DNA of 64,000 nucleotides from a virus. The position numbers were made by a program, and so were the translations under genes. The stretch lies in the IMG/VR virus record IMGVR_UViG_3300042307_002096, positions 1 through 64,000 of that record; one strand, 5' to 3'. Below, piece after piece: positions 9,003 through 29,173 of the stretch. Under the pieces are notes generated by a model. That model worked only from the letters and a program-made list of their open reading frames with translations. It searched no databases and was not told the origin of the DNA. Each line of letters begins with the position of its first letter. The first letter of the stretch is position 1.

Positions 9003-9533
9003 TTAATACCAATCCGGCTTTGAGCAATTTGTCCAAGTTGCAAACGGTTTGTCTAGCTTAATATACCATTGATATTGTTCTGTAATTGGAATGTTGTTGA
9101 AACCTGCTACTCGTGACCTACAATTCATATCATTGTTAATTGCAATTGCAAACGGAGTTAAATTTGTTTGTTTGCAGTAAAGAGTCTTATCGATATTGTC
9201 TCGGCACCATTCGATGAACGTTTTTGTAAAATGTGGAGCTGATTTTGGCCAACGTCTATCCCTTTCATTAAACATTTCTAAAGCATGTTCAACAAGCCAT
9301 TTAAAATTTTGCTTCGATTCTCGAACCCATACAGCGCAAGGGTGATTAAAATATCCCTTACCTGCTTTGCGAGGAGTACCTTTTTTTGTAAGAGGAGCAC
9401 TTAAAAGAGTTTCATTATCAAAACAATGTTGGAGAAGTATTGCTGACTCTATTTGCATCTTAGAACGGCAATGTTGATCGCAAAGTTCACGAGCTGCTAT
9501 AACCGGGTTTATATTTGTTACGAATATGTTCAC
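9003..9533 (-). CDS. Pyrimidine-dimer DNA glycosylase-like protein
   Basis: MNIF..P...A..LCD.H..KM..E..., NHPC..W.RES..N..WL. Confidence 0.7.
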   Translation of the reverse strand: MNIFVTNINPVIAARELCDQHCRSKMQIESAILLQHCFDNETLLSAPLTKKGTPRKAGKGYFNHPCAVWVRESKQNFKWLVEHALEMFNERDRRWPKSAPHFTKTFIEWCRDNIDKTLYCKQTNLTPFAIAINNDMNCRSRVAGFNNIPITEQYQWYIKLDKPFATWTNCSKPDWY

Positions 9534-13154: not shown

Positions 13155-13231
13155 GGAGCTGTAGCTCAATTGGTTAGAGCGTCGCCCTGTCACGGCGAAG
13201 GTTGCGGGTTCGAACCCCGTCAGCTCCGCCA
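13155..13231 (+). tRNA. tRNA-Asp(GTC)
   Basis: Cloverleaf, TTCGA, encoded CCA. Confidence 0.95.
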
Positions 13232-13271
13232 GTTCCATTAAATAATATTAAGTATATGCGAATAAATTTAC

Positions 13272-13358
13272 GGAGGAGTGTCTGAGCGGCTTAAAGAGTC
13301 AGTCTTGAAAACTGAAGAGGTATAAAAGCCTCCGTGGGTTCGAATCCCACCTCCTCTT
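13272..13358 (+). tRNA. tRNA-Ser(TGA)
   Basis: tcagt-CTTGAAA-actga, long variable arm; no encoded CCA. Confidence 0.85.
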
Positions 13359-13573
13359 GATCTTCCACGTGGAATAAACAACCTGTGCCTTTTGTTTGCG
13401 GTCATATTGATGGCAATCCAACAAACAACAATTATAGCAACTTTTGAATTGTTTGTTGCAATTGTGATGCTCAGCTACCAACATATAAGTCCAAAAATTG
13501 TGGTAAAGGTAGACAATACGACAGAGAAAGATATGATATTTTCAATAAATAAACATATCATTGCAAACGAGAC

Positions 13574-13645
13574 GGGGGTGTGGTGCTAATGGTAACACAT
13601 GGCCTTTGCAAGGCTGAGTTAAGAGTTCGATTCTCTTCACCTCCA
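13574..13645 (+). tRNA. tRNA-Ala(TGC)
   Basis: G3:U70 pair; loop TT-TGC-AA. Confidence 0.85.
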
Positions 13646-13699
13646 CATTTTAACAGGGTTTAACAAGATTTACAGCAAGGTTTTTTGATAAGTAATATC

Positions 13700-14041
13700 A
13701 TGAACTTCAACTCTGCAACTTATAATGCAATTATTACTTTTAATACTGCATCGAAAGCTGGCAAAGGATTTGGCTTGTTTAATCAATGGGTTAAAAAAGC
13801 TTTGTATGGAACTTTGTTAAAAAAGGAAGGAGAGAACGGAGAGTATTCTATATACGGGCTAAATTATCAAGATGGTAAAGATTATGTTACATTTAATATA
13901 GAATCTGCTTCTTCAGAAAATATTTACTGGCAGCTAAACAATATTAAAAATTTTGTGAAAACTCTTTCAGGAGCATTAGAATTTCATGCTGATGTGCTCA
14001 TTAAATCCAAAAAAGTCTTTTGGTCTGCAGGAGAAGAATAA
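13700..14041 (+). CDS. Hypothetical protein
   Basis: TAAGTA 5 nt before ATG 13700. Confidence 0.6.
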   Translation: MNFNSATYNAIITFNTASKAGKGFGLFNQWVKKALYGTLLKKEGENGEYSIYGLNYQDGKDYVTFNIESASSENIYWQLNNIKNFVKTLSGALEFHADVLIKSKKVFWSAGEE

Positions 14042-14082
14042 TTTGTGTTGACTTATATTTTATATAAATTAACATCAACGGT

Positions 14083-14622
14083 GTGAATCAAGAACCATTA
14101 TATCATATCGATACAACTCCCGAAGAAGACAAGTTGTTTCAAGACATGCCGACAACCAAGTCTGACGCTCCTAAAAAAGGTGCATTTGCAAAAATATTTT
14201 GCATTGTTCTTAGCTTGCATGTTGCAGTAGCTGGCATCATAGGAATGAGCGCAACTAGCGCTAGCGCAAATGCAGCTTCAGAAAAATCTCAAAATTTGTC
14301 TTCTGTCACAGAGACGTTTGAGTCAACCAACTCAACTACATCAAAAATTGCTACTGTAGAGCCAACACCAAAACCAACGCCATTAAACACTCCTGCGCCT
14401 TTAAAAAAAGAACAGGCTACTACGAGCGCAAAAAAGTTACCAACAGCAACTCCACCAAAGTCAACTAACCTATTGTATACAAAAGAATATGTGGTCAAGC
14501 AAGGAGACACCATTTACAGCATTTCTAAAAAATACAAACTTAGTGTGGACCGATTAATCAAAATAAATAACATCAAAGATGTCAATAAAATACAAATTGG
14601 ACAAACTTTGAAGTTTATGTAA
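14083..14622 (+). CDS. Membrane-anchored LysM protein
   Basis: TM, Thr/Pro linker, C-terminal YVVKQGDTIYSISKKY...IQIGQTL. Confidence 0.9.
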   Translation: MNQEPLYHIDTTPEEDKLFQDMPTTKSDAPKKGAFAKIFCIVLSLHVAVAGIIGMSATSASANAASEKSQNLSSVTETFESTNSTTSKIATVEPTPKPTPLNTPAPLKKEQATTSAKKLPTATPPKSTNLLYTKEYVVKQGDTIYSISKKYKLSVDRLIKINNIKDVNKIQIGQTLKFM

Positions 14623-14631
14623 TTTGAAGCA

Positions 14632-15438
14632 ATGATCTTTAAAAATTTCTTGTCCACACTGACAAAGCACAAAATATTTAACGACAAGGGACTAACGTTT
14701 AAAGGAGCTCTTACTGCTGTAATTATGTTGCATCTAGTTGGTGCGGGATTTATTTATGGATATGTAAAGTACCAATCTTATAGATATCAAATCGTAAAAC
14801 AAAAATACAACGAACGACTACAACAAGTAGATCCTAATAAAATAGATTGGAATAACGATAAGTTAAAATTAAAAATAGTGGCTGTGCCTAGCCCAAAGCC
14901 AGCTATTAAAAAAACTAATGACACTAAATTTAACTATGCTTTACCTATTAAAGCACTATCAGATGCTACATTGAATTTTTTTATTACAGTACAATCGACA
15001 TTTAATGCAACTGTTGCTTTTGTTAATAAAGAAATCAATGACTTAACAATAAAACAACAAAGGCCGCAAACAACAATTCCGACAAAGAAACAACAAAAAG
15101 AGACGCCGTGGAAATTAGCAGCAGATAATCGTCAAACAAAACATACACAAGTAAAAAAAGTTGAACTTTCTGAAGCAGAAAAGCGATTAGCCAAGGTGCT
15201 GGAGCACGACAAGAAAAAAGCTAAAACTGAAACTATTACTATTACAGTACCACCTTCTGTATCTAGATCTATTCCGCCTATAAAAATAAAAAACCCAGTG
15301 AATACAAGACCTTTAAACAATGACTGTTTGACAGAAAAACAAATAATAAACTCAAACGAAATTAGCAGTCCTTTGAGGTATACCAGCGAAATTAATCAGC
15401 AAACAAGCGAGATAATACATACTTTTTACTCTTATTAA
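14632..15438 (+). CDS. Single-TM protein
   Basis: VIMLHLVGAGFIYG TM resembling that of the upstream gene. Confidence 0.6.
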   Translation: MIFKNFLSTLTKHKIFNDKGLTFKGALTAVIMLHLVGAGFIYGYVKYQSYRYQIVKQKYNERLQQVDPNKIDWNNDKLKLKIVAVPSPKPAIKKTNDTKFNYALPIKALSDATLNFFITVQSTFNATVAFVNKEINDLTIKQQRPQTTIPTKKQQKETPWKLAADNRQTKHTQVKKVELSEAEKRLAKVLEHDKKKAKTETITITVPPSVSRSIPPIKIKNPVNTRPLNNDCLTEKQIINSNEISSPLRYTSEINQQTSEIIHTFYSY

Positions 15439-15441
15439 AAT

Positions 15442-15699
15442 ATGAAAAATAATACACATCAACATAACTTCTTTAAATCGCAAATTACAGCAACCTTGGT
15501 TTCTATTTGGGCATTATTGCTACTAGTGGTAGCAATACTTTGGCCTCTTGGAGTAATTTGGGCAATGAATACACTTTTTGGTCTCGGTATTGCATACACA
15601 TTTTGGAATTGGCTAGCGGCTACGGTTTTGATTTTTACCATTCAAGGAGCTCTACGTATTTCTAAAAAAACAATTGATACTAGCAATTATGGAAAATAA
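15442..15699 (+). CDS. Small membrane protein
   Basis: Two hydrophobic segments. Confidence 0.6.
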   Translation: MKNNTHQHNFFKSQITATLVSIWALLLLVVAILWPLGVIWAMNTLFGLGIAYTFWNWLAATVLIFTIQGALRISKKTIDTSNYGK

Positions 15700-16213
15700 C
15701 ATTGACAGGATTCTATACAGCGAACAAACTATTTTATCAAGACTGGACAGTCTTGGCTCACAAATTAGCAATGATTATCAAGGAAAAGATCTTACGGTAA
15801 TAGCCATTATGAATGGCAGTATTATGTTTATGTCAGATTTGCTTAAACGAGTAAACATTCCTCTACAAATTGACTGTTGGAGCATTTCGAGTTATCATGG
15901 CTGTAAGTCGACAGGAACTATTAATTTTCGACAGCACGAAATAGTCGATGTCACCAACAGACACGTGTTACTTTTAGATGATATCTTAGATTCTGGATTA
16001 ACGCTACATACAATTAAAAATAAAATTTTTAATGAAACGCAAGCTTTGTCCATAAAATCTTGTGTGTTACTGTCTAAAAAAATTACACGAGCAGAAAATA
16101 TTGAAGCAGATTATATTGGATTTAAAATAGACAACGAATTTGTTGTTGGCTATGGTTTAGATTACAATGAACATTATAGAAATTTACCATATATAGGGGT
16201 CTTAAAAAACTAG
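15689..16213 (+). CDS. hpt: Hypoxanthine phosphoribosyltransferase
   Basis: VLLLDDILDSGLTL, FVVGYGLDY..YRNLPYIG. Confidence 0.95.
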   Translation: MENNIDRILYSEQTILSRLDSLGSQISNDYQGKDLTVIAIMNGSIMFMSDLLKRVNIPLQIDCWSISSYHGCKSTGTINFRQHEIVDVTNRHVLLLDDILDSGLTLHTIKNKIFNETQALSIKSCVLLSKKITRAENIEADYIGFKIDNEFVVGYGLDYNEHYRNLPYIGVLKN

Positions 16214-16248
16214 TTGACTGTCCGTTTTATTGAGTGATAATATTAGCT

Positions 16249-17253
16249 ATGAAACTAGCAACAATTGAAACAATCAAATCGCTAAAGAAGCATCCAAACG
16301 CTGACAAGCTTGAAATTGCTCAGATTCTTGGCTGGCAATCAGTTGTCCAATCTGGGATACACAAAGAGGGAGATAAAGTCGTCTTTATTGTAATTGACTC
16401 GATTGTTCCTCGTTGTCAATGGTCCGAATTTTTAGTCGATCAAAAAAATCCAGACAAACCAATTCGTTTGAAGATGATCAAGCTCAGAGGAGAACACTCT
16501 GCTGGTATTGTTATTCCGCTTAGTCAGCTTCCAGCTTCTTTTGAGTTGTATGATACTGGAACAGACGTTACTGAATTACTTGGCGTGCAAAAATATATTA
16601 AAGAACTTCCTGCTAGTCTTGGTGGAGAAAATGTTGGAAACTTTCCTACACACATTGCTTCCAAAACAGACGAAGATAACGGATTGTCTGATCCTAAACT
16701 CGTAGAGGAAGTTATTAAACAACATTTAACCATTACTCAAAAATTGGATGGATCAAGCTGTACGGTTGTTGTAGAAGACGGAGTCATTACACAAGTTTGT
16801 TCTCGTAATTTATCAAAGAAAGAAACTGATAAGAGTGCATTCTGGAATGCTGCAAAAAAACTTTCTATTTTGCCTGGATTTACTGGAGTTATCCAAGGAG
16901 AGCTTTGTGGACCTGGTATTCAGCAAAATACTCTTCGTCTTTCTGAGCCGGAACTTTTTGTATTTCAAGTTAAAAAACAAGACGGCAATTATATGAACTA
17001 CCAAGAGATGAAAGGGTTCTGTAATGTGGAATTAAAATGCAATGTCGTGCCTCTTATTGTTGAAACGTCATTTGTTGGATGTGATACTGACGTGGCTATC
17101 TCAAAGCTTCAAGATCTGGCTGACCAACAATTACTTCCAAACAAGAATCCAGCAGAAGGAATTGTAGTTCGCCCTACGGCTTATCCTAGGTCGTACGAGA
17201 GCCGGAGGCCACTGGGATTTAAAATTATTAACAGAAATTATAAAGATACCTGA
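16249..17253 (+). CDS. RNA ligase, DRB0094/Rnl5-like
   Basis: N-terminal HPNADKLE OB-like domain, KTDE, TQKLDGSS, QGELCGPGIQ, EGIVVR. Confidence 0.85.
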   Translation: MKLATIETIKSLKKHPNADKLEIAQILGWQSVVQSGIHKEGDKVVFIVIDSIVPRCQWSEFLVDQKNPDKPIRLKMIKLRGEHSAGIVIPLSQLPASFELYDTGTDVTELLGVQKYIKELPASLGGENVGNFPTHIASKTDEDNGLSDPKLVEEVIKQHLTITQKLDGSSCTVVVEDGVITQVCSRNLSKKETDKSAFWNAAKKLSILPGFTGVIQGELCGPGIQQNTLRLSEPELFVFQVKKQDGNYMNYQEMKGFCNVELKCNVVPLIVETSFVGCDTDVAISKLQDLADQQLLPNKNPAEGIVVRPTAYPRSYESRRPLGFKIINRNYKDT

Positions 17254-17287
17254 TAAATAGGTACGAAACTTTGATCTTTGAAATTAT

Positions 17288-17751
17288 GGGGGTGTACTGG
17301 TTTCGACAAATGGTTGAAATTAAAAGTGCATGTAGAGGTTGATCGATGGCCTCTTTAAAAATCGATTAAAAAAACTAAACGCAGAATCTAATAATTCTGA
17401 TCTCCTAACTGAAGCTGAATATATCTTCAACAACGCCGACGAAATTCTCGCTGGTGCTGAAGAGTTTTCACTAGCAGCCTAAGAGCCTTATACTGGATCC
17501 TCTAAAAGTATTTGGAAAATGCAGAGGGGTTGCAGTGAGTAGGTGTCTAGCAACAGAAAAGCAACAAGACCTATCGGCAATGGATGTACGATAATATCCA
17601 TAGGTAGACATAAAATACGCGGTTAGTACAACCAAACGACCTAGTGTCCGTGTTACCGCAAGGTGATTGAAACGTTGAATGTACTCAAGCATGTGAAGAT
17701 CTTTTAACGTAAGTTATTTGGACAGGGGTTCGATTCCCCTCACCTCCACCA
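17288..17751 (+). ncRNA. ssrA: tmRNA; tag ORF 17381-17482
   Basis: GGGGGTG..TTTCGAC 5' end, G3:U70, GGTTCGATTCC..CACCTCCACCA 3' end, tag ends LAA-stop. Confidence 0.95.
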
Positions 17752-17777
17752 ATTTCAAATGATTAAATAAAATAAAA

Positions 17778-17868
17778 GGACAGATGGCAGAGTTGGTCTA
17801 TTGCATCTGACTAGAAATCAGAAGTGCTCGAAAGGGCACCGTGGGTTCGAATCCTACTCTGTCCGCCA
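17778..17868 (+). tRNA. tRNA-Ser(AGA)
   Basis: tctga-CTAGAAA-tcaga, long variable arm, G73, CCA. Confidence 0.85.
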
Positions 17869-17869
17869 C

Positions 17870-17968
17870 TTATTTCTTTTTTTTATTAGCTCCTTTTTGA
17901 GAAGATTTGGAACCTGGTTGTTTTGGTTTCTTTTTTTCTTTTTTTTGTGAGAGATTTCCTTTAGCCAT
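17870..17968 (-). CDS. 32-aa Lys-rich peptide (not in ORF track)
   Basis: MAKGNLSQKKEKKKPKQ...; TAAGTA upstream. Confidence 0.45.
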   Translation of the reverse strand: MAKGNLSQKKEKKKPKQPGSKSSQKGANKKKK

Positions 17969-18025
17969 AGTAATATTACTTATTTTTTTCTTGACAATTT
18001 TTTTAATTCAACTAGTATATAAATC

Positions 18026-18337
18026 ATGCAACCAACCATCAAAACATTAAGGCAAAGTGGATATAAAGTGCGAGTGATTCATACTCGAAATTATAAGATC
18101 GTTAAAAAAATAAGCGGAGATCATTGTGAAATTTTGGCGCGAGGAGGAAGCACAACAATTCAAATTACAACTCCTGACAAAAAATACGATGCACAAGGAG
18201 TTGCTGAATGCTCCGACAAAGACAATTTTAGCAAAAAAACCGGAAACTTTATTGCTGTTGGACGAGCACTAAAAGAACTAAAAGAAATGATGGAAAACGA
18301 TTGCATTTCCAATGAAGATTTTAATAATATTGGTTGA
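18026..18337 (+). CDS. Small phage protein with GxAxCxxxDxFxxxxGxxIAxxRA motif
   Basis: GVAECSDKDNFSKKTGNFIAVGRAL; TTGACA promoter upstream. Confidence 0.65.
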   Translation: MQPTIKTLRQSGYKVRVIHTRNYKIVKKISGDHCEILARGGSTTIQITTPDKKYDAQGVAECSDKDNFSKKTGNFIAVGRALKELKEMMENDCISNEDFNNIG

Positions 18338-18362
18338 TCTGTCCACTATTTAATAGTAGAGT
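18334..18362 (+). promoter_or_regulatory. Early-type promoter TTGATC-TGTCC...TAGAGT
   Basis: 17-nt spacer; precedes tRNA block. Confidence 0.55.
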
Positions 18363-18370
18363 ATAAAAAC

Positions 18371-18598
18371 GCTCGAGTGGAGTAGAGCAGTTAAAGAAGA
18401 CCTAGCTTCTATAAAATTCTAGAAAGATTTTTGAAAAATTAATTTTTACGCCTCCATGATGAAATTGGTAAACATTGTCGACTTAAAATCGACTGCTCTT
18501 GAGCTTCCCGGTTCGAATCCGGGTGGAGGTACCATTTTTTTTGTCAATTATTTATACAAAAAAAAAAAATTAAATTTCGAGTCCCTTCTCGAGTACCA
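18371..18598 (+). pseudogene. Disrupted tRNA: 5' end 18371-18380 and 3' end 18576-18598 flanking tRNA-Leu
   Basis: GCTCGAG pairs with CTCGAGT-A-CCA; TTCGAGTCCC T-loop fragment. Confidence 0.55.
18450..18534 (+). tRNA. tRNA-Leu(TAA)
   Basis: gtcga-CTTAAAA-tcgac, variable arm, CCA. Confidence 0.9.
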
Positions 18599-18608
18599 AT
18601 TTAACAAA

Positions 18609-18695
18609 GGGTTACTATACCGTTAAAGAGACGGTCCGGACTGTAAATCCGGCATGCATCGCATTCGCTAGGAGCATTACCTAGGTGGCCCACCA
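18609..18695 (+). tRNA. tRNA-Tyr(GTA), atypical T- and D-loops
   Basis: ccgga-CTGTAAA-tccgg, paired acceptor stem, CCA; T-loop AGCATTA. Confidence 0.75.
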
Positions 18696-18698
18696 TAC

Positions 18699-18772
18699 GC
18701 GGGATTAGTTTAATGATAAAACAGGAGTTTTCCAAACTTCGGTTGGGAGTTTGATTCTCCCATCCCGCACCA
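18699..18772 (+). tRNA. tRNA-Gly(TCC)
   Basis: Loop TT-TCC-AA; CCA. Confidence 0.85.
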
Positions 18773-18792
18773 TTTTACACAAACACACAATT

Positions 18793-18969
18793 ATGACACA
18801 AACAGAAAACACAACCGAAGGAAAAGTATATCAACTATGCCAGGAGCTAGATGATATCAAGAAGCGCAAAAAAGCTTTTGTTAAAGCCTATAACGTCGAA
18901 ATTAGGCGCATTCAAGACGAAATTCAAGATATTCTTAATCCGGAAGAAGCTGTAGTAGAACTTCCATAA
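18793..18969 (+). CDS. Small coiled-coil protein
   Basis: Start moved downstream of tRNA-Gly. Confidence 0.55.
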   Translation: MTQTENTTEGKVYQLCQELDDIKKRKKAFVKAYNVEIRRIQDEIQDILNPEEAVVELP

Positions 18970-18980
18970 ATAAACTAAAT

Positions 18981-19057
18981 AGACTTGTAGCTCAGTTGGT
19001 TAGAGCATCTCGTTGATAACGAGAGGGTCGTAGGTTCAAGTCCTACCAGGTCTACCA
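18981..19057 (+). tRNA. tRNA-Ile(GAT)
   Basis: Canonical cloverleaf, CCA. Confidence 0.95.
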
Positions 19058-19062
19058 AGATT

Positions 19063-19137
19063 GCTCCCATAGTGTAACGGTTAGCACACCACCCTCTCAC
19101 GGTGGTAGTAGGGGTTCGAATCCCCTTGGGAGTGCCA
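19063..19137 (+). tRNA. tRNA-Glu(CTC)
   Basis: ccacc-CTCTCAC-ggtgg, CCA. Confidence 0.95.
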
Positions 19138-19145
19138 TACTATAT

Positions 19146-19292
19146 ATGAAGGTACAAAAAACAACTTCTGCCCAAATGCCCTTCAAAGACCACTTTAAAA
19201 AAGAACAACAAAAGAAAAAAGAGCAAGAAAAGAAAAAAGCTGTTGATAAGTCCGACAAAAAGACAGATAGTAATTTTATTGGATGGGCATAA
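19146..19292 (+). CDS. 48-aa Lys-rich peptide (not in ORF track)
   Basis: Open frame exactly filling the tRNA-tRNA gap. Confidence 0.4.
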   Translation: MKVQKTTSAQMPFKDHFKKEQQKKKEQEKKKAVDKSDKKTDSNFIGWA

Positions 19293-19304
19293 GTAATTTC
19301 ATAA

Positions 19305-19391
19305 CCCGGAGTGTGAGAAGTCTGGTATCTCAGTGCGCTCATAACGCACCGCCTACGTGCCTCGCAGGTTCAAATCCTGCCTCCGGAACCA
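19305..19391 (+). tRNA. tRNA-Met(CAT), initiator-like, atypical
   Basis: C1:A72 mismatch, CTCATAA loop, TTCAAAT T-loop, 14-nt variable region. Confidence 0.8.
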
Positions 19392-20130
19392 TTTGACAAA
19401 ATTTGTTAAATTCTTGTTCAACAAATTTTTTATTAAATTTTCCTAAATCTTTTATAATGTACGGAACGTAACCGTTTTTTACAATTGCTAGTTGTTTTAA
19501 ACGGTCTCGATTTTGAACTTGTAATAAAGAATGTCGTTTAGTTATTTGTTTATAATGCCAAGCACCGTTCCACAAAATTGCAATTTTAAAATCTGGTATT
19601 ATAACATCAGCGTCCCATCCCTCAAACAAAGGCTCATTGTGAAGTACGTTTGCAAATTTGGCTTTACAAAGTTCATAAAAATATATTTCATTTTTGCTCC
19701 GTTTAATTTGTCTGGATGCGGAAACCAACCCTCCAATTCTAGCTCCTTCTTTTTTTCTTTGGGTCGAGCAACCTTCAGAACATGTTTTTCTTTTATGCAA
19801 AGATTCAATTTTCGTCTTACAAACAACGCACTCATACGTCTTCAATGTTTTTGCTTTATATTTTTTATATACTTTTTTTGTTGAAAAAGGAGTTGTCTTT
19901 GTTCGTTGTTTGTTATTAAAAGTTGCAGCACAAGAACGAGAGCAAAATTTTGTATTTTTTCCGTTATTTCTTAATTGCTGATAAGACAATATGCTGTTGC
20001 AGTTTAAGCAGCTTTTAGGATTAGATTTGTACTCTTCTACTCTTTTTTGGTATTGTTCTTTTTGATACTTGCCGGCTCCATTGATATATCTATGGTCCGG
20101 TTTGTTGTTTAACTCTAATCTGTTTTTCAT
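19339..20130 (-). CDS. Free-standing homing-type endonuclease (Zn-ribbons plus PD-(D/E)xK/DUF559-like domain)
   Basis: CxxC/CxxxC repeats; WDADVIIPDFKIAILWNGAWHY..RD..K. Confidence 0.7.
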   Translation of the reverse strand: MKNRLELNNKPDHRYINGAGKYQKEQYQKRVEEYKSNPKSCLNCNSILSYQQLRNNGKNTKFCSRSCAATFNNKQRTKTTPFSTKKVYKKYKAKTLKTYECVVCKTKIESLHKRKTCSEGCSTQRKKEGARIGGLVSASRQIKRSKNEIYFYELCKAKFANVLHNEPLFEGWDADVIIPDFKIAILWNGAWHYKQITKRHSLLQVQNRDRLKQLAIVKNGYVPYIIKDLGKFNKKFVEQEFNKFCQMVPEAGFEPARHVGGAL

Positions 20131-20269
20131 AATTATATTCGAGAGGACAGCTAGTTCTTAATCTGTCTAGTTTCTTTAAAGTTCGTACCTTTAAAGATTA
20201 CTCTCATAAATTATTTATCTTTTTGTGTTGCAATTACAAGAATGTGTAAATAATTATATTCAATTAAAC

Positions 20270-20376
20270 GCCCTGTTAGCTCAGAGGTAGAGCAACGGTT
20301 TTGTGAGTTGTCAGCCTTTTGTCGGACAATTCTCATAAACCGTCGGTCATCCGTTCAAATCGGATACGGGGCTCCA
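20270..20376 (+). tRNA. tRNA-Thr(TGT) with 32-nt anticodon-loop insertion (20305-20336)
   Basis: G1-C72/C2-G71, intact D and T arms, CCA; acggt/accgt stem encloses the insert. Confidence 0.8.
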
Positions 20377-20382
20377 ATTTAA

Positions 20383-20457
20383 TCCTAGGTAGCTCAGCGG
20401 AAGAGTCGTCGGCTGTTAACCGATTGGTCGTAGGTTCGAATCCTACCCTAGGAGCCA
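20383..20457 (+). tRNA. tRNA-Asn(GTT)
   Basis: Loop CT-GTT-AA; G73; CCA. Confidence 0.95.
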
Positions 20458-20479
20458 CGTCTGTTCGTCAGTTACTCAG

Positions 20480-20508
20480 TTGACTTGTCCGTCATTCAAT
20501 AGTATCCT
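20480..20508 (+). promoter_or_regulatory. Early-type promoter TTGACT-TGTCC...TATCCT
   Basis: 17-nt spacer. Confidence 0.6.
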
Positions 20509-20524
20509 TATCTCATAATAAAAA

Positions 20525-20599
20525 GTCTCGATCGTTCAACGGATAGGACAGAGCTCTTCTAAAGCCCTAATGTAGGTTCGATTCCTACTCGAGACACCA
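20525..20599 (+). tRNA. tRNA-Arg(TCT)
   Basis: Loop CT-TCT-AA; CCA. Confidence 0.9.
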
Positions 20600-23355: not shown

Positions 23356-23426
23356 ATAGTGCACACTCTCGACGAAAGCCAAATAGCTTAGCATTAAAAA
23401 ATAAACCAATTTGCCTAAGTATGATT

Positions 23427-24032
23427 ATGCACGACATAATCAAGGTTTTTTTGGTTTTAAGTTTGGTTTTATTTACAACTTCTTGTACTGTATATACAGA
23501 AAAACAATCAGAAGCATTGTCGAGCTCAATATATGCAGCTAAGGACTCCATGGATGTGGCTAGAATTGATTTAGCTGACAAATATGTTGCTGAATCAACA
23601 AGACTTGTTAAACCACCCAAAAAAAGAATTGACATTCAATCCGTATATAAAAAAAGCGTAGATATTTCGTCTAATGGCAAATTAAATCAAGCGAGTGTTG
23701 TTAAGCAAAGAGTAGTAGTTATTCCCGAAAAATATAGAACTGATGCAGTAATTGTTGTTAGTTCTGCTGAATATCAAAAGTTATTAGAAGACAAAGAAAC
23801 GTACGAACAAATTAAAAAAGACAATTTGAGTTTAGTTGAGGTTAAAGCAGCAGTCGACAGCGAACTAATTCGACAAACGGACAATAGAGATAAGATGGTT
23901 AATGATCTCAATATAATGCAAAAAAAATTAATTGAGAAAGATTTGGCTATACTTCGTCGCAATATTTTTATTGTTGCGTTGATTGGAACAATTGGTGCAG
24001 GTGCTTATTTAAGATTGAAAGGAATATTATAA
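23427..24032 (+). CDS. Putative unimolecular spanin
   Basis: N-terminal lipoprotein signal (LFTTSC), coiled coil, C-terminal TM; adjacent to holin and lysozyme. Confidence 0.6.
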   Translation: MHDIIKVFLVLSLVLFTTSCTVYTEKQSEALSSSIYAAKDSMDVARIDLADKYVAESTRLVKPPKKRIDIQSVYKKSVDISSNGKLNQASVVKQRVVVIPEKYRTDAVIVVSSAEYQKLLEDKETYEQIKKDNLSLVEVKAAVDSELIRQTDNRDKMVNDLNIMQKKLIEKDLAILRRNIFIVALIGTIGAGAYLRLKGIL

Positions 24033-24463
24033 TGTTTCCATTTATAAAAAACATAACATTGTCAGCTATTGCTTTTTTAAGCAGTAACAAAGTTCCTCCA
24101 AACACACCGCCAGAGGATTGTGATAGGTTAAAATCAATAAATCACATGGAATCTAAAAAATTCTTTATTGTGTTAACATCTGTTTTTATTCTTGCTTTTT
24201 TTTATTTTGTTAGCGTTGGTGTGCTATTCATGTTACCTCATAATGCACCTGAATTTGTTAGTGGTTTTGTAACGCTGTTTTCAAAAACAATTGAAATTTT
24301 AGCTGTTGTTATAGCTTCGTATGTTGGAGCACAAGCTGTTGTTGATTTAAAATACGCTAGCAATTCTAGTGCTTCTTTAGCAGGGGATACGCACACAGAA
24401 AACACACAAAATGTTACTGTGATACAAACAAACATGAAAGAGGATGATTATGAACTCGTCTAA
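24032..24463 (+). CDS. Putative holin
   Basis: SKKF-TM1...TM2-YVGAQAVVD; TAATG-coupled; directly upstream of lysozyme. Confidence 0.65.
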   Translation: MFPFIKNITLSAIAFLSSNKVPPNTPPEDCDRLKSINHMESKKFFIVLTSVFILAFFYFVSVGVLFMLPHNAPEFVSGFVTLFSKTIEILAVVIASYVGAQAVVDLKYASNSSASLAGDTHTENTQNVTVIQTNMKEDDYELV

Positions 24464-25067
24464 GCCTTCTGAAAAAACATTAGAATTACTACTCCGGTAT
24501 GAAGTTGGTGGAGGTAAGCCATATTATGAAAAATATCTTTCAAAATTTACTTGGCCTGGCGGAGCATCAGGACCAACAATTGCTATTGGAGTAGATTGTG
24601 CTTATTATTCAGAAAGTGAATTATTTAAAATATTTTCATTTCTTCCAAAAAATCAATTAATTCAAGTTCAAGGAGCTTCGGGAAAATCTGGAGAAAAGGG
24701 AAGGTTGTATACGGTTAAATTAAGAGCTGCAGGAATTACTGTAACTTGGGATAAAGCTCTTGAAATTTTTGAGCAACTTACGTGGCCAAAATTCACAAAA
24801 TTAGCAGAAAAAACGTTTCCTGGATTGGAAAATTTGCACCCAGATGCTTACGGAGCCATTATATCTTTGGTGTTTAATAGAGGCACAAGTCTTGTTGGAG
24901 AAAAGCGAAAGGAAATGGCTAACATTAAAAATTTGATTTCTACAAAAAAATACAAACAAATTGCACAAGAGGTTCGTAACATGAAACGTATTTGGGTTGG
25001 AAAGGGTTTGGACGGTTTGATAGAAAGAAGAGAATCTGAGGCAAGATTAATTGAATCAGTCATATGA
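24450..25067 (+). CDS. Endolysin, lysozyme (GH24/pesticin-like) fold
   Basis: YEV...WPGGASGPTIAIG, SLVFNRG, GLIERRESEA. Confidence 0.8.
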   Translation: MNSSKPSEKTLELLLRYEVGGGKPYYEKYLSKFTWPGGASGPTIAIGVDCAYYSESELFKIFSFLPKNQLIQVQGASGKSGEKGRLYTVKLRAAGITVTWDKALEIFEQLTWPKFTKLAEKTFPGLENLHPDAYGAIISLVFNRGTSLVGEKRKEMANIKNLISTKKYKQIAQEVRNMKRIWVGKGLDGLIERRESEARLIESVI

Positions 25068-25981
25068 ATAAAACGCCTAAAAAAAAGTTGACTTCGTGCG
25101 AAAATGAAGAAATTTTAAAAAGCATCGAAACTAGACAAAATTCTTTGAATAGCTTGTCTAAATATTTGTCAGAATTAGAAAGTCAGCTTGCTTTGGTGTT
25201 TGCTTCGTCACCTGATATAATCGTGTTCTTAGATCAAGATTCTACGATATTAAAAATAAGTGATGCAGCTTTTACTATATTGGGTTATACACGATCAGAT
25301 TTAGTTGGTAGGCCAATATGGGATTTTATTGATTCAGAAGATGCTATAGAAACTCGTAAAAAATTTTTAGAATTAAGAGAAAAAAAAGTAATGTACTTTG
25401 ATGGGCAAAAAGCACTCGTCAATCATTGGATATCTAAAAGCGGAAACAAAGTAAAGTTAGTATGGAGATTTTCTTTGTGTGACGAGAGAGAAAATCAAAC
25501 AATTGGTATTGCATCTGACATTACTCAGTTTAGTCCAAATAATGCTTATAGCTATAAATTGCTAGAAAAAGCAGTAGAGTCTTCAACAGACGGAATTGTG
25601 ATTACAGATGCACAACACCCGGACAATGTAATGGTGTATGTTAATAGCGCTTTTGAGAAAATTACGGGATATACGAGTAACGAATTAATAGGCAACAACT
25701 GCAGAATGCTGCAGACGGACGACACAAAAAGTTCCAGAGCACTTAAAACTCTGAGATCTTGTATTAAATCCGGAAAAAATTGCGACGTATTGCTGCAAAA
25801 TAAAAGAAAAAACGGAGAAGTATTTTATTCTAGATTAGCAATATCGGCTGTTATTGAACACGGAGTAGTTGTTAACTTTATTGGAGTAGTCAGGGATATA
25901 ACAGATAAAATTGACGTAAAATATGAGTGGTCTCCAAACGCAGAAAGCGGATTTATACATTTAAGCAATCGCCATGAATAA
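25064..25981 (+). CDS. PAS + LOV sensor protein with no output domain
   Basis: Coiled coil, PAS ending DIT, LOV with DGIVITDA..PDN.MVYVN.AF..ITGY and GNNCRMLQ. Confidence 0.9.
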   Translation: MNKTPKKKLTSCENEEILKSIETRQNSLNSLSKYLSELESQLALVFASSPDIIVFLDQDSTILKISDAAFTILGYTRSDLVGRPIWDFIDSEDAIETRKKFLELREKKVMYFDGQKALVNHWISKSGNKVKLVWRFSLCDERENQTIGIASDITQFSPNNAYSYKLLEKAVESSTDGIVITDAQHPDNVMVYVNSAFEKITGYTSNELIGNNCRMLQTDDTKSSRALKTLRSCIKSGKNCDVLLQNKRKNGEVFYSRLAISAVIEHGVVVNFIGVVRDITDKIDVKYEWSPNAESGFIHLSNRHE

Positions 25982-26378
25982 CAAATTTGAACAAAGCAAC
26001 ATAAATCATTATGAAGGGAACGGCTGGTCTAAATATCAGCTGATGGTGTTGCAACAATTAGAAGACCATCACAGATTGTTGCAAAATCTAAACAAAGATA
26101 TTAATGAGTTAAGACAAGCAAACGCAGTGTCAGATACAGAGCTAAAAATGTGGAGATCTCAAACAATGATTACCGTTCAAAAGTTGGAAGAGGAAGTTGA
26201 TGAAATACTGTATGATGAAAAAGGACTAAACTCTAAAGTATCAACAATTGAGAGAGAGCTGAATATAGAAGAACAAGCAAGTACTAAATGGAAGGCCACA
26301 TTGGCTCTTTATGGTTCTATAGCAGTATTTTTACTAAATACCATTGTGCAAATAGTTACAGCATATATTAAAAAGTAA
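25974..26378 (+). CDS. Coiled-coil protein with C-terminal TM (lysis-associated?)
   Basis: Heptad-rich; TM ALYGSIAVFLLNTIVQIVTAYI; overlaps the LOV gene. Confidence 0.65.
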   Translation: MNNKFEQSNINHYEGNGWSKYQLMVLQQLEDHHRLLQNLNKDINELRQANAVSDTELKMWRSQTMITVQKLEEEVDEILYDEKGLNSKVSTIERELNIEEQASTKWKATLALYGSIAVFLLNTIVQIVTAYIKK

Positions 26379-26379
26379 T

Positions 26380-26568
26380 ATGTTTTTTATTGGCAATCAA
26401 GGGCCTGTAATTGAAAGGGATCCAACCATTCAACAGCTTAAACAAAATGTTGCTGATAGATTGTGGGATATTGTTAAAGAAGAACCAGTAAGTACACAAG
26501 AAAATAAAATAAAATTTGTGTCTTTCGAAGATGCTTTAAACGAATTAATTGCTGTAAATAGTCTTTGA
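26380..26568 (+). CDS. Hypothetical protein
   Basis: 1 nt after upstream stop. Confidence 0.5.
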   Translation: MFFIGNQGPVIERDPTIQQLKQNVADRLWDIVKEEPVSTQENKIKFVSFEDALNELIAVNSL

Positions 26569-26639
26569 TTGTTTAATTTTTTTTTTTGTTGCCTTGTTTG
26601 TTTAATTGCCGTATAGTGGTCCTTGTAACAATCAAACAT

Positions 26640-27488
26640 ATGACTACACTAACACTTGAACAAGCCACGACAATAGTCCCAGCAATTGGAGCAAATTCCC
26701 CATCCGACCGCGTATCCAATCGCTATCAATTTGTGTCGACCCGAGACATTCTTGAACGTGTACAGCAAGACGGGTGGACAATTACGAACGCAACCGCTCA
26801 AAACCGTTCTCCTTATGCTCAACACCGAATCACTTTGGTACACCAAAATGATCTCAGTACAGCAAATGATTCTAATTCAGAGGGTATTCCTCGTATTGAA
26901 ATGTTTAACTCTCATGACCGAAGCAAACGGTTGATGTTTGCAATTGGTTTTTTTCGTTTTGTTTGTTCAAACGGTCTTATTGTAGCTTCCGGTCCTGCTG
27001 AAACAATTCGAATTAAGCATCGTTTTTCAGGAGACCGTTTGTCTGAAATTATGGAGCAAGTTTCTCAAATTTCTAGTCGTTTTCCTACAATTCAAAATAC
27101 AATTAATAATTTTAAGTCCCGCGAGATGGCTGAAGATGAGCAAGTTTTGTTTGCTCAATACGCAATTAAGGGTCGTTTTAATTATCGACCAGCAATGCCT
27201 AAACGTTTTCAAGATACAGAACGTACCGTAGAACGGCTTTTGCAATCACGTCGAGATGCTGATTCTGGTAATTCCGTTTGGCAGGTATACAACCGCGTTC
27301 AAGAAAACCTTATTAGTGGCATGGAGGGTTTCTCCCGTCCTATCCGAGGATATTTTGACAACGTTCGAGTAAACCAACTTTTGTGGAAAGGTGCTGAAAC
27401 CACGCTTCGGTTTGACAAACAACAACTCCGCTCTGCATTAATGGATCTTATTACTAAAGACGGCAAAAAAAATAAAATATCTGCTTGA
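26640..27488 (+). CDS. DUF932/DUF945-family protein
   Basis: S.RY.FVST, NSHD.S, FRFVCSNGL, W.VYNRVQEN. Confidence 0.85.
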   Translation: MTTLTLEQATTIVPAIGANSPSDRVSNRYQFVSTRDILERVQQDGWTITNATAQNRSPYAQHRITLVHQNDLSTANDSNSEGIPRIEMFNSHDRSKRLMFAIGFFRFVCSNGLIVASGPAETIRIKHRFSGDRLSEIMEQVSQISSRFPTIQNTINNFKSREMAEDEQVLFAQYAIKGRFNYRPAMPKRFQDTERTVERLLQSRRDADSGNSVWQVYNRVQENLISGMEGFSRPIRGYFDNVRVNQLLWKGAETTLRFDKQQLRSALMDLITKDGKKNKISA

Positions 27489-27738: not shown

Positions 27739-28167
27739 ATGAAATTTTTTAACCAGAAGCTTACCAAAAAACAGCTTAGAGTGACAATTTGCAAGTTTGC
27801 TAAACAAATAGGTGTAAAAAAAGTAATTTTTAATAATAACGGAAAAAATGTTAACGGTACATACAATTCGAAAACGCAAGTATTGTACCTCAACAACAAA
27901 CAGATTAAATCCAGAATGTTGTGTACGTTTTTTCATGAACTTGGACATCATACAGCAGTTGAGCAAAATAAATGGAAAAAATATCACCATTGCTTAGTTC
28001 CGTTTATGACAGTGGATGCAATTTTTAATATTGAAAATAAAATAGATCAAATTGGTAAAAAACTTTGGCACAAACACGTTGACATCAAACAGTGGGGGAT
28101 GTATAAATACGGGTATCCAAAATCACAAAAAAATAATATTATAAAAAATTTTATCAGCAAACAATAA
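27739..28167 (+). CDS. HExxH zincin-like protein
   Basis: TFFHELGH with downstream E. Confidence 0.6.
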   Translation: MKFFNQKLTKKQLRVTICKFAKQIGVKKVIFNNNGKNVNGTYNSKTQVLYLNNKQIKSRMLCTFFHELGHHTAVEQNKWKKYHHCLVPFMTVDAIFNIENKIDQIGKKLWHKHVDIKQWGMYKYGYPKSQKNNIIKNFISKQ

Positions 28168-28382
28168 TGAGTAACCTAACAGCATACGTATACAAAGATG
28201 GAGACAAATTTTATTTTGACTCCGAAAACTACAACGATAATGGACTAAGTCTGTCAATTGATTACGAAGACGGAGACATGATTAAGTGGACTTGGGAAGG
28301 CAAAAAAATGACGGGAATTTTGAGAGAAGAAGGTCGAAATCTAGGTCTCTTTGCCATTGAAAATACGATGGTTCACGGATGA
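28167..28382 (+). CDS. Hypothetical protein
   Basis: TAATG coupling. Confidence 0.55.
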   Translation: MSNLTAYVYKDGDKFYFDSENYNDNGLSLSIDYEDGDMIKWTWEGKKMTGILREEGRNLGLFAIENTMVHG

Positions 28383-29173
28383 GAGTATTTACAGAACTAT
28401 CAATTTTTAACAGAATCACATTTGTTGAAAAAACACATTCTTACTTGATAGACGGACAACCAGCAAATAAATTGTCTGTCACGAGGTTGTTAAAAAAATT
28501 TAAAAAAGAATTTGATAAACAGGGTTCTGCAGAGCGAGTTGCTAAAAGGACAAGAACAACAGTGCAAGCCGTATTGGCTGATTGGGAGCTTGGTAATCTT
28601 TATTCAACTACGTTGGGATCAATGCTGCACAAATATATTGAAAATTATTATTGCAACAAGCGTGTAGAATTCGAGGGAAATTTTAATGGGCTGGGGTTTG
28701 ATGAAAAAAAGAAAATTGGTGAAACTCTACCAACACTAATTGGTTATTTTCAAAATTTTTATAACGACAACAAACATTTAATTTGCGTTAAAACCGAAAT
28801 TGTGCTCGGTGACATCAATGACACTAAGGTTTGTGGTATGTCAGATCTTCTTTGTTATAACACAGAAACAGATCAATTAGAGATATTAGACTTTAAGACG
28901 AACAAACGAATGGAAAAAAAGAGTCCATATGGAGATTTATTTTATCCATTTGATGATATGTCCGAAGGCGAAATTAATGAATATACAATACAGTTAAACA
29001 CATACAAATATTTTGTAGAAAAATACACAAATTTAAAAATCGATAAACTAAAAATTGTTTGGTTTAATGTCGTGAACGACAATTATAAAATTTTCGAGCT
29101 AGAGGATATTCAGCCAAAAATTAAATTAATGTTTGATAAATTCAAAGCAGCTTCTTTATTTGAAGAACAATAA
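28379..29173 (+). CDS. PD-(D/E)xK exonuclease
   Basis: SVT, G..LH..IE, E...CG.SD, ILDFKT, Y..QL..Y. Confidence 0.85.
   Translation: MRVFTELSIFNRITFVEKTHSYLIDGQPANKLSVTRLLKKFKKEFDKQGSAERVAKRTRTTVQAVLADWELGNLYSTTLGSMLHKYIENYYCNKRVEFEGNFNGLGFDEKKKIGETLPTLIGYFQNFYNDNKHLICVKTEIVLGDINDTKVCGMSDLLCYNTETDQLEILDFKTNKRMEKKSPYGDLFYPFDDMSEGEINEYTIQLNTYKYFVEKYTNLKIDKLKIVWFNVVNDNYKIFELEDIQPKIKLMFDKFKAASLFEEQ

Follow-up and report, generated by a model that had tools for sequence, protein, structure and literature searches.

A PAS/LOV protein and a tail-anchored coiled-coil partner as a putative accessory module in the lysis cassettes of uncultured aquatic T4-like phages

The moment of lysis sets the burst size and fitness of a phage, and the lysis regulators known so far, such as lambda S107 and T4 RI/RIII, respond to membrane energization or superinfection. 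Here, we describe a lysis cassette that includes a gene for a different kind of protein, one with two PAS domains of which the second is LOV-type. It lies at positions 23421-26378 of the window, i.e., the whole stretch of 64,000 nucleotides analyzed, which is the first 64 kb of the 78-kb IMG/VR record IMGVR_UViG_3300042307_002096. A sequence-only reading of this DNA had proposed that a PAS-LOV gene is wired into the lysis cassette of a phage and may gate lysis by light or redox state. The LOV domain, its pairing with the neighboring gene and the linkage to lysis genes stood up in our analysis, whereas light is not the signal that is conserved, as the canonical flavin pocket is found in only 40 of 110 family members. 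Comparison of relatives indicates that the conserved unit is a lysis-linked module of the PAS protein and a small tail-anchored coiled-coil membrane protein (hereafter ccTM), in which flavin or light input is optional.

Several accessory systems of phage lysis offer points of comparison, the two-holin systems being the nearest in function. In SPP1 (gp24.1/gp26) and PBSX (XhlA/XhlB/XlyA), a protein with a single C-terminal transmembrane (TM) segment and a two-TM holin jointly disrupt the membrane; in SPP1, the genes for gp24.1 and gp26 flank the endolysin gene (gp25), and both membrane proteins are needed for lysis (PMC6316719). In the same manner, the genes for the two-TM holin-like protein and the C-terminal-TM ccTM lie on either side of the endolysin gene in the present cassette. 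The SPP1 and PBSX systems, which stem from Gram-positive hosts, differ in lacking any PAS or LOV partner, and ccTM is longer than gp24.1 (134 versus 83 aa) and carries a distinctive NGWSKYQ..LQQL.DH head. Whereas gp24.1 matches phrog_1193 at 2e-9, ccTM does so at E 3e-4 (1.2e-5 for the best member; 8 of 38 ccTM members match, all weakly), no match to Pfam XhlA was found in ccTM, and alignment of ccTM with gp24.1 by hhalign gives a probability of 9.5%, so that an analogy rather than homology is claimed. For a soluble modulator that acts on the holin from the cytoplasm, T4 itself offers a precedent among T4-like phages: the antiholins RI and RIII bind the holin and delay lysis on a signal, RIII being cytoplasmic (PMC8385771). 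Neither shows kinship with the present protein in sequence or fold, the T4 signal is superinfection, and RI and RIII are not known to have a PAS domain or a tail-anchored partner.

With regard to the sensor, the best matches of its second PAS domain (PAS-B) include short effector-less LOV proteins of Pseudomonas (PpSB1-LOV/PpSB2-LOV; 3sw1, 5luv, 7a6p, 7r5n, 8q5e; E ~1e-22), which share the core fold, carry the adduct Cys within an xCRxLQ motif and are likewise fused to no effector. Since these proteins and the phage protein alike lack an effector, the output must go through protein contacts. Unlike them, the phage protein adds an N-terminal long helix (N-helix) and a family-specific first PAS domain (PAS-A), replaces the J-alpha helix by a non-helical C-terminal tail, lacks the active-site Gln and one flavin-contacting Asn, and is encoded by a phage, next to the gene of an obligate membrane partner. 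Replacement of the Gln in strand Ibeta (by Leu, Ile, Ser, Thr or others) also defines the LOV-deltaQ group (Dietler et al. 2022, PMC9098866), a published set of cellular receptors with enzymatic effectors in which neither a phage member nor a lysis context is described. An effector-less protein with PAS followed by LOV is known from plants: PLP binds and inhibits a partner, and blue light relieves the inhibition (PMC10291033). This eukaryotic protein acts on a metabolic enzyme and is not known to have a membrane partner, and its kinship with the phage protein appears limited to the LOV core. Known already are LOV domains, LOV proteins that lack an effector or the Gln, and accessory regulators of lysis; the novelty lies in an N-helix/PAS/LOV family restricted to phages, in its obligate partner, a tail-anchored protein, and in the position of the family in lysis cassettes. 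The literature searched yielded neither a natural LOV receptor encoded by a phage or virus nor a light-gated lysis system, and, in agreement with the sequence-only reading, no published phage lysis module with a LOV sensor.

The genes of the cassette and the reading frame that follows are these:
23421..24032, + strand: u-spanin-like protein, 203 aa; N-terminal lipoprotein-type signal to Cys22, C-terminal TM segment at about 175-199
24032..24463, + strand: holin-like protein, 143 aa; TM segments at about 41-71 and 75-107, acidic C-terminus
24444..25067, + strand: endolysin of the Phage_lysozyme type, 207 aa; PF00959, phrog_7 endolysin, no signal sequence or TM segment
25064..25981, + strand: N-helix/PAS-A/PAS-B(LOV) protein, 305 aa; soluble and effector-less (Pfam, PDB, AlphaFold2 (AF2), Foldseek)
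25974..26378, + strand: ccTM, tail-anchored coiled-coil membrane protein, 134 aa; TM segment at about 109-132, head motif NGWSKYQ.MVLQQL.DH
26380..26568, + strand: small open reading frame (ORF), 62 aa, beginning 2 nt past ccTM (ORF list)

The five cassette genes overlap or abut, as had been noticed from the sequence alone, through a TAATG junction (24030-24034), a 20-nt overlap (24444-24463), an ATGA junction (25064-25067) and an 8-nt overlap (25974-25981). The endolysin is the best recognized of the lysis genes: its product exceeds the curated PF00959 cutoff, modestly (26.6 versus 22.3 bits), in line with the lysozyme assigned earlier, and its best PDB match is, weakly, P22 lysozyme (2anv). 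Having no hydrophobic segment, this lysozyme would depend on a holin for access to the wall. The labels u-spanin-like and holin-like hold by architecture and position but gain no support from family matches: the u-spanin-like protein matched no Pfam or PHROG family, and the holin-like protein matched no Pfam or PHROG holin family, SpoIIM being below cutoff at 20.4 bits. The holin-like protein has the layout of a two-TM holin, with two TM segments, a charged C-terminus and a gene beside that for the endolysin; a conserved motif, ..VPPNTP.., lies in its N-terminus, which is predicted to be cytoplasmic. Its homologs in relatives are always found directly 5' of an endolysin gene, whose product may be a Phage_lysozyme, a Peptidase_M15_4 (alone or with PG_binding_1) or a GH108 with PG_binding_3, three types unrelated to one another, and this constant position before wall-degrading enzymes is the strongest argument for both the holin and the endolysin assignments. 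The N-terminus of the u-spanin-like protein is hydrophobic and ends in ..TTSC(22), a non-canonical lipobox; its gene is kept 5' of the holin-like gene in loci L002, L003, L005, L016, L018-L020 and L044. In L004, L007, L024 and L032, a two-gene set for a small lipoprotein and a coiled-coil membrane protein is found instead, a predicted i-spanin/o-spanin-like pair of atypical form. At L004:3239-4092 and L007:832-1621, where this set was delimited, the small lipoprotein has a lipobox of ..TSC or ..TGC, and the second protein (159-172 aa) starts with a signal-like segment, contains a coiled coil and is hydrophobic at its C-terminus. By gene order and protein architecture, 23421-26378 is taken to be a real lysis cassette.

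How firmly the PAS protein and ccTM belong together, and to lysis genes, was surveyed in 7 viral and 30 metagenome loci, 27 of them distinct and with enough downstream sequence. The ccTM gene directly follows the PAS gene in all 27, including L006, where the PAS protein is 39% identical, and the loci outside lysis cassettes; the pairing of the sensor gene with that of the downstream coiled-coil/TM protein, as noticed earlier, is thereby supported. In 21 of 25 loci, the pair lies next to an endolysin of one of the three types, and the genes occur in two arrangements. In the first, seen in 20 distinct loci, the endolysin gene (11 lysozyme, 9 Peptidase_M15_4) is directly 5' of the PAS gene; the spanin slot switches between one gene and two while the pair stays put, and the same slot of the cassette holds every pocket state of the PAS/LOV protein as well as forms without a LOV domain. 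The second is found in L027, whose PAS/LOV protein is 46% identical with a canonical NCRVLQ motif: here the pair lies in a different genome region, beside head-like genes, and tail-to-tail with a holin-like homolog (28% identity, E 9e-12) followed by a GH108 endolysin. The remaining four distinct loci, all on deep branches (L006/L008, L028, L035 and L036), have no lysis-gene match. In L006/L008, L028 and L036, the neighbors are an HNH endonuclease and unrelated genes, and no recognizable lysis enzyme lies within 3-6 kb; for L035, only 1.5 kb of upstream sequence is present. Because of these four loci, the linkage could partly reflect inherited synteny in one clade.

The deep-branch loci can also be read to mean that the PAS protein and ccTM form a sensor or regulator outside lysis, e.g., in superinfection control, host takeover or membrane-stress signaling, and that its position reflects inherited gene order or shared late expression. 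Such a role would account for the pair beside HNH endonuclease genes and for the absence of a lysis-gene match in the 1.5 kb upstream in L035; moreover, most lysis-linked loci belong to one syntenic clade sharing DUF932 and other downstream genes, and no family annotation links either protein to lysis. Nevertheless, the linkage outlasts replacement of the endolysin by unrelated enzymes and the swap of the spanin-like gene to two genes, a distant phage with another layout again has the pair against holin-like and GH108 genes, convergently, and the architecture and flanking layout of ccTM match those of a known second holin component. We therefore regard a role outside lysis as decidedly unlikely. 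From the loci compared, the linkage to lysis genes is strong and survives both gene replacement and rearrangement, without being universal.

The ccTM protein begins with the strongly conserved head NGWSKYQ.MVLQQL.DH, continues as a coiled coil and ends in a single TM segment (109-132 of 134). Its family, of 208 clusters, is as large as that of the sensor and has no Pfam domain or name; in a protein atlas, it was met in viral hypothetical clusters and in DUF2951 (0.93), the latter to be taken as a lead only. Longer, fused forms of ccTM were not found, which is weak evidence. Neither ccTM nor the holin-like protein gave a match against GenBank phages by tblastn, and by this search no cultured phage carries either. 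A co-fold of the PAS/LOV protein with ccTM residues 1-107 scored 0.07 against a mark of 0.32, which is evidence neither way.

The constancy of ccTM is best seen where its partner is reduced. Proteins of 163-171 aa with only the N-helix and PAS-A are encoded at L007:2800-3315 and L032:1233-1676, and another is P0252; wherever the context of these LOV-less forms is known, ccTM comes next. As P0252 and the L007 protein are 54% identical, the LOV-less form is a persisting lineage rather than an assembly accident. L032 is a TARA ocean scaffold, which places the module in marine phages as well. A further step is seen in L044 (IMGVR_UViG_3300010885_071954), with the order u-spanin-like, holin-like, lysozyme, 62-codon ORF and ccTM. 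The ORF (L044:1895-2083) keeps the ATGA overlap and encodes the N-terminal helix only (..TRQIELRKLSACLS..), with the RQ..L..LS signature; it is perhaps a minimal remnant that still functions, perhaps a gene in decay. The order of dispensability in this series is first LOV, then PAS-A, then the N-helix, with ccTM kept throughout, which singles out ccTM as the core of the module and LOV as its most dispensable part.

Within the PAS gene, the following parts are distinguished:
25082..25207, + strand: N-terminal long helix, residues 7-48 (alignment and AF2 model)
25217..25519, + strand: PAS-A, residues 52-152, family-specific PAS domain (Pfam, alignment and AF2 model)
25556..25912, + strand: PAS-B, residues 165-283, LOV-type (PDB matches, alignment and Foldseek)
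25700..25702, + strand: codon TGC of Cys213, the position of the flavin-adduct Cys (sequence and PDB alignment)
25913..25978, + strand: non-helical C-terminal tail (..KYEWSPN.ESGF..) replacing the J-alpha helix (alignment; short strands in the AF2 model)

Pfam finds the two PAS domains in the 305-aa protein (PF13426, E 7.6e-33) and no other domain; kinase, GGDEF and HTH output domains are absent, as the sequence-only reading had it. In the AF2 model (pLDDT 78), a helix at 7-48 precedes PAS-A (52-152), a linker helix leads on to PAS-B (177-278), and the short tail that follows is not helical. When PAS-B is compared with PDB sequences by phmmer (best E 1.6e-23), the top of the list contains only LOV photoreceptors (8c05, short LOVs of the PpSB1/2 type, aureochrome, phototropin and YtvA), headed by a LOV-activated diguanylate cyclase and the Pseudomonas short LOV proteins, and the 60 best listed matches are all LOV receptors or LOV-containing constructs. 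By Foldseek, the PAS-B model superposes on 9vf7 and 8c05 at 1.3-1.4 Å with 36-38% identity. By sequence and modeled fold, PAS-B is thus a LOV-type domain, and the earlier claims of such a domain, of Cys213 at codon 25700 and of the motif GNNCRMLQ, with FWN changed to FYS and the Ibeta Gln to Val, proved correct on alignment and fold comparison.

Does the pocket of this domain still have what flavin chemistry requires? The residues are G210, N212, C213, R214, M215, L216, Q217, R225, N246, S256, L258 and V276; the motif G210-N-N212-C213-R214-M215-L216-Q217 includes the adduct Cys. A published filter for LOV domains asks for at least eight of nine residues of BsYtvA, G59, N61, C62, R63, F64, L65, Q66, N94 and N104 (PMC9098866). 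PAS-B has seven of them (G210, N212, C213, R214, L216, Q217 and N246), with M215 in place of Phe (YtvA 64) and S256 in place of Asn (YtvA 104), and the active-site Gln of strand Ibeta (AsLOV2 Q513, YtvA Q123) is V276. The filter is not absolute, because the bona fide LOVs of the PpSB1 type (..YQDCRFLQ..) would also miss two of the nine. In AsLOV2, the substitutions N492A, F494L and Q513A/L keep FMN (flavin mononucleotide) absorbance and the photocycle, whereas N482A was not expressed (PMC3903614). The equivalent of N482 is kept here as N246, and the deviations S256, L258 and V276 fall at positions tolerant of substitution in AsLOV2. The active-site Gln is dispensable for LOV signaling; natural Gln-less LOV receptors exist, and one of them, a Mesorhizobium LOV-GGDEF protein with Met at this site, responds to blue light (PMC9098866). 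Because its deviations lie where AsLOV2 tolerates them, the pocket of this phage is probably still competent for flavin and the Cys213 adduct, and flavin binding and adduct formation by this copy are plausible.

The relatives of the protein comprise at least 120 clusters at 90% identity, all of about 300 aa and all metagenomic, and some of their contigs measure 110-224 kb. Full-length members number at least 110, and uncultured aquatic phages are the source of all of them. By tblastn, no full-length homolog was found in deposited phage genomes of GenBank, where the matches are partial, covering the LOV core or a PAS domain only. Those in P1 and SJ46 are Aer/MCP-type genes and were rejected as PAS/LOV homologs. 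Four short unannotated records (OR847435, OR848284, OR848423 and OR847031; 'Listeria phage LM 4-11-1 / 4-14-1', 3-9 kb) contain a LOV core 36% identical to PAS-B and may be host-derived fragments with a YtvA-type gene rather than phage genes. A search of 1.84 billion representatives with an N-helix+PAS-A profile was swamped by generic multi-PAS proteins, which makes it uninformative on fusions; its sole yield was P0252, of 163 aa. The strongest conservation in the family lies in the N-helix, PAS-A and the C-terminal tail and not in the pocket. The N-helix (7-48) is the densest invariant block (L18, R24, Q25, S32, Y34, L35, L38, E39, S40, Q41, L44 and F46); in PAS-A, W122 and W134 are invariant and R135 nearly so, and in the tail, W289, P291, E294, G296 and F297 are at least 90% conserved.

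The pocket, on the other hand, exists in several states. It is canonical (NCR[FMILV][LMF]Q with N246) in 40 of the 110 members; in 20 the Cys alone is lost (N[GAT][KR]FLQ, N246, usually N256, and W274 in all but one); and in 50 it is non-canonical, plainly degenerate in most (SFWNNL, PCSVLN, etc.), although two of these differ from canonical only by Lys214 (NCKFLQ). The Ibeta Gln is absent in all 110, and 16 relatives pass the 8/9 filter, their residue at the Gln site being Ser, Ile or Thr. In a tree from which the pocket columns were excluded, the canonical pocket is found in the deepest branch and in three other separated clades, and the Cys state changes at least nine times. For clades picked partly by pocket state, conservation of the pocket exceeds that of the rest of PAS-B where the pocket is canonical or Cys-less, and falls below it where the pocket is degenerate; in the clade of this phage, all 21 canonical members keep N212, C213, R214, Q217 and N246. 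The canonical pocket thus looks ancestral and lost at least five to seven times, and we read this as an ancestral functional flavin-LOV domain repeatedly freed from constraint. One further relative, P0119 (271 aa, on a contig of 1188 nt), diverges into unrelated residues just before the NCRFLQ position, which looks like a frameshift within the LOV domain, either from a sequencing error or in a pseudogene.

The Cys-less members suggest another use of the flavin, as a redox or energy sensor like that of the PAS-FAD aerotaxis receptors, which would couple lysis to the collapse of host energy without any photoreceptor. Their 20-member clade keeps every pocket residue but the Cys (N[GA]KFLQ, N246, N256), with significant conservation of the pocket, which fits flavin binding without adduct chemistry; besides, holin triggering is sensitive to membrane energization. 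Yet the Cys, whose sole use is in adduct photochemistry, is retained by this phage and by 39 other relatives, no feature specific to redox sensing was recognized, and the habitat is a lake water column where light is available. A pure redox sensor is quite improbable.

Our preferred explanation, which we hold tentatively and at a little under an even chance, is that the PAS/LOV protein and ccTM together constitute an accessory module of two genes, which belongs to the lysis cassette of one clade of T4-like phages, aquatic and uncultured. In this model, ccTM would be the membrane component, acting with or against the two-TM holin-like protein as XhlA/gp24.1 acts with XhlB/gp26. The PAS protein would be a cytoplasmic modulator, whose N-helix and PAS-A might engage ccTM on its cytoplasmic side or the holin at its conserved cytoplasmic N-terminus, and this engagement would shift the time of holin triggering. 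LOV would be an optional input: with flavin bound and Cys213 forming an adduct, blue light or the redox state of the flavin would probably bias the modulator. In many relatives, this input would have decayed or been deleted, the module running without it. Flavin binding, the photocycle, the PAS-ccTM contact and the effect on lysis timing are steps that we infer. The stronger version, in which a working flavin-LOV photoreceptor gates or biases the moment of lysis by blue light through ccTM acting on the holin, is in our view unlikely.

Several observations count against the preferred explanation. The pocket scores 7/9, short of the 8/9 of the published filter, and has a valine at the site of the active-site Gln; a relative 78% identical to the present protein, P0015, already has a destroyed motif, and conservation of the pocket in the clade of this phage is not significantly above background (0.26 versus 0.43 bits, P 0.16). 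The canonical pocket is missing from 70 of the 110 members, and the LOV half, even the whole PAS part, can be deleted in relatives; light can therefore not be essential to the module. Finally, four distinct deep-branch loci have no lysis-gene match, and the homology of ccTM to XhlA/gp24.1 is unproven, with a low hhalign probability and weak PHROG matches.

Much of this would be expected if PAS-B were a relic that binds no flavin, or binds it without signaling, and serves a structural or dimerization role in a constitutive adaptor of ccTM free of light or redox input. The filter score without the Gln, the repeated decay of the pocket in relatives including P0015, the non-significant conservation within the clade of this phage, the persistence of LOV-less and PAS-less forms, and the concentration of conservation in the N-helix, PAS-A and the C-terminal tail rather than in the pocket all agree with such a relic. 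It is less easily reconciled with the 21 canonical members of the clade, all of which keep five pocket residues at positions that vary freely in degenerate clades. Moreover, the deviations of the pocket lie at positions where substituted AsLOV2 retains FMN and the photocycle (PMC3903614), and Gln-less LOVs can signal (PMC9098866). On balance, a relic LOV domain is somewhat unlikely, and we retain the lysis accessory module with an optional LOV input.

That lake and ocean phages of a widespread clade have a sensor protein in their lysis cassettes suggests that some cue, from inside the cell or from the environment, is read for the timing of the burst, ancestrally perhaps blue light or the redox state of flavin. 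If so, viral lysis could follow the diel cycle in surface waters, bearing on carbon turnover. If light gating were true, a natural viral photoreceptor would for the first time be known to control part of the infection cycle, and lysis regulators would gain a new class. Intact LOV, Cys-less, decayed-pocket, LOV-deleted and helix-only forms make the family a natural series in one gene context, which could be used to dissect the contribution of LOV to an output by protein contact, and the family could yield small light-switchable parts for membrane targeting.

Some features around the cassette may be added. Tight packing of genes runs on beyond 26378, with the 26380-26568 ORF followed by a DUF932 gene (26586-27488, E 2e-27). 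The ORF is kept after ccTM in many, not all, relatives and may belong to the same transcription unit as ccTM. Farther downstream are a weak match to an M78/IrrE-like metallopeptidase of the HExxH type, below cutoff (27739-28167), and a weak match to a PD-(D/E)XK nuclease (28379-29173); these two genes and that for DUF932 are syntenic in most relatives. The T4 late-promoter motif TATAAATA occurs at 4 sites versus 7.8 expected, none in front of the cassette, and scans for sigma-70 promoters and terminators stayed at or below shuffle expectation and are thus uninformative on the transcription unit.

The phage itself is T4-like in its replication genes, the window encoding a family-B polymerase, UvsX, a gp46/47-type nuclease and DnaB- and Dda-like helicases. 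Its DNA polymerase is only 30-31% identical to those of Melnitz, HTVC008M and cyanomyophages, which marks the lineage as uncultured with respect to cultured aquatic myophages, and no match to the cassette DNA was found among GenBank phages by blastn. The completeness of the 78-kb record is 37% by CheckV, implying a phage of roughly 200 kb, and the G+C content of the window is about 34%. The same DNA was found again in lake and freshwater metagenomes of five further studies.

A pyrimidine-dimer glycosylase-like gene at 9003-9533 had been taken earlier as a hint of a sunlit habitat; its Pyr_excise match, at 20.5 bits, is weak and below the 23-bit Pfam cutoff, and it was dropped as habitat evidence. 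A gene of this type does lie 2-3 kb from the PAS+ccTM pair in deep-branch loci outside lysis cassettes: the product of L006:9095-9580 (- strand) matches Pyr_excise above cutoff at 24.9 bits, and an ORF at L036:1-450 (- strand) has an N-terminus that looks like that of a pyrimidine-dimer glycosylase. Also near the deep-branch pair are genes for a Macro-domain protein (L036:1362-1850, - strand) and a DUF2828/DUF7788 protein (L006:2787-4301, - strand). Upstream of the cassette in the window, at 13155-20599, is a cluster of 11 tRNA genes together with a tmRNA of 464 nt called by ARAGORN, with a long acidic tag ending in LAA.

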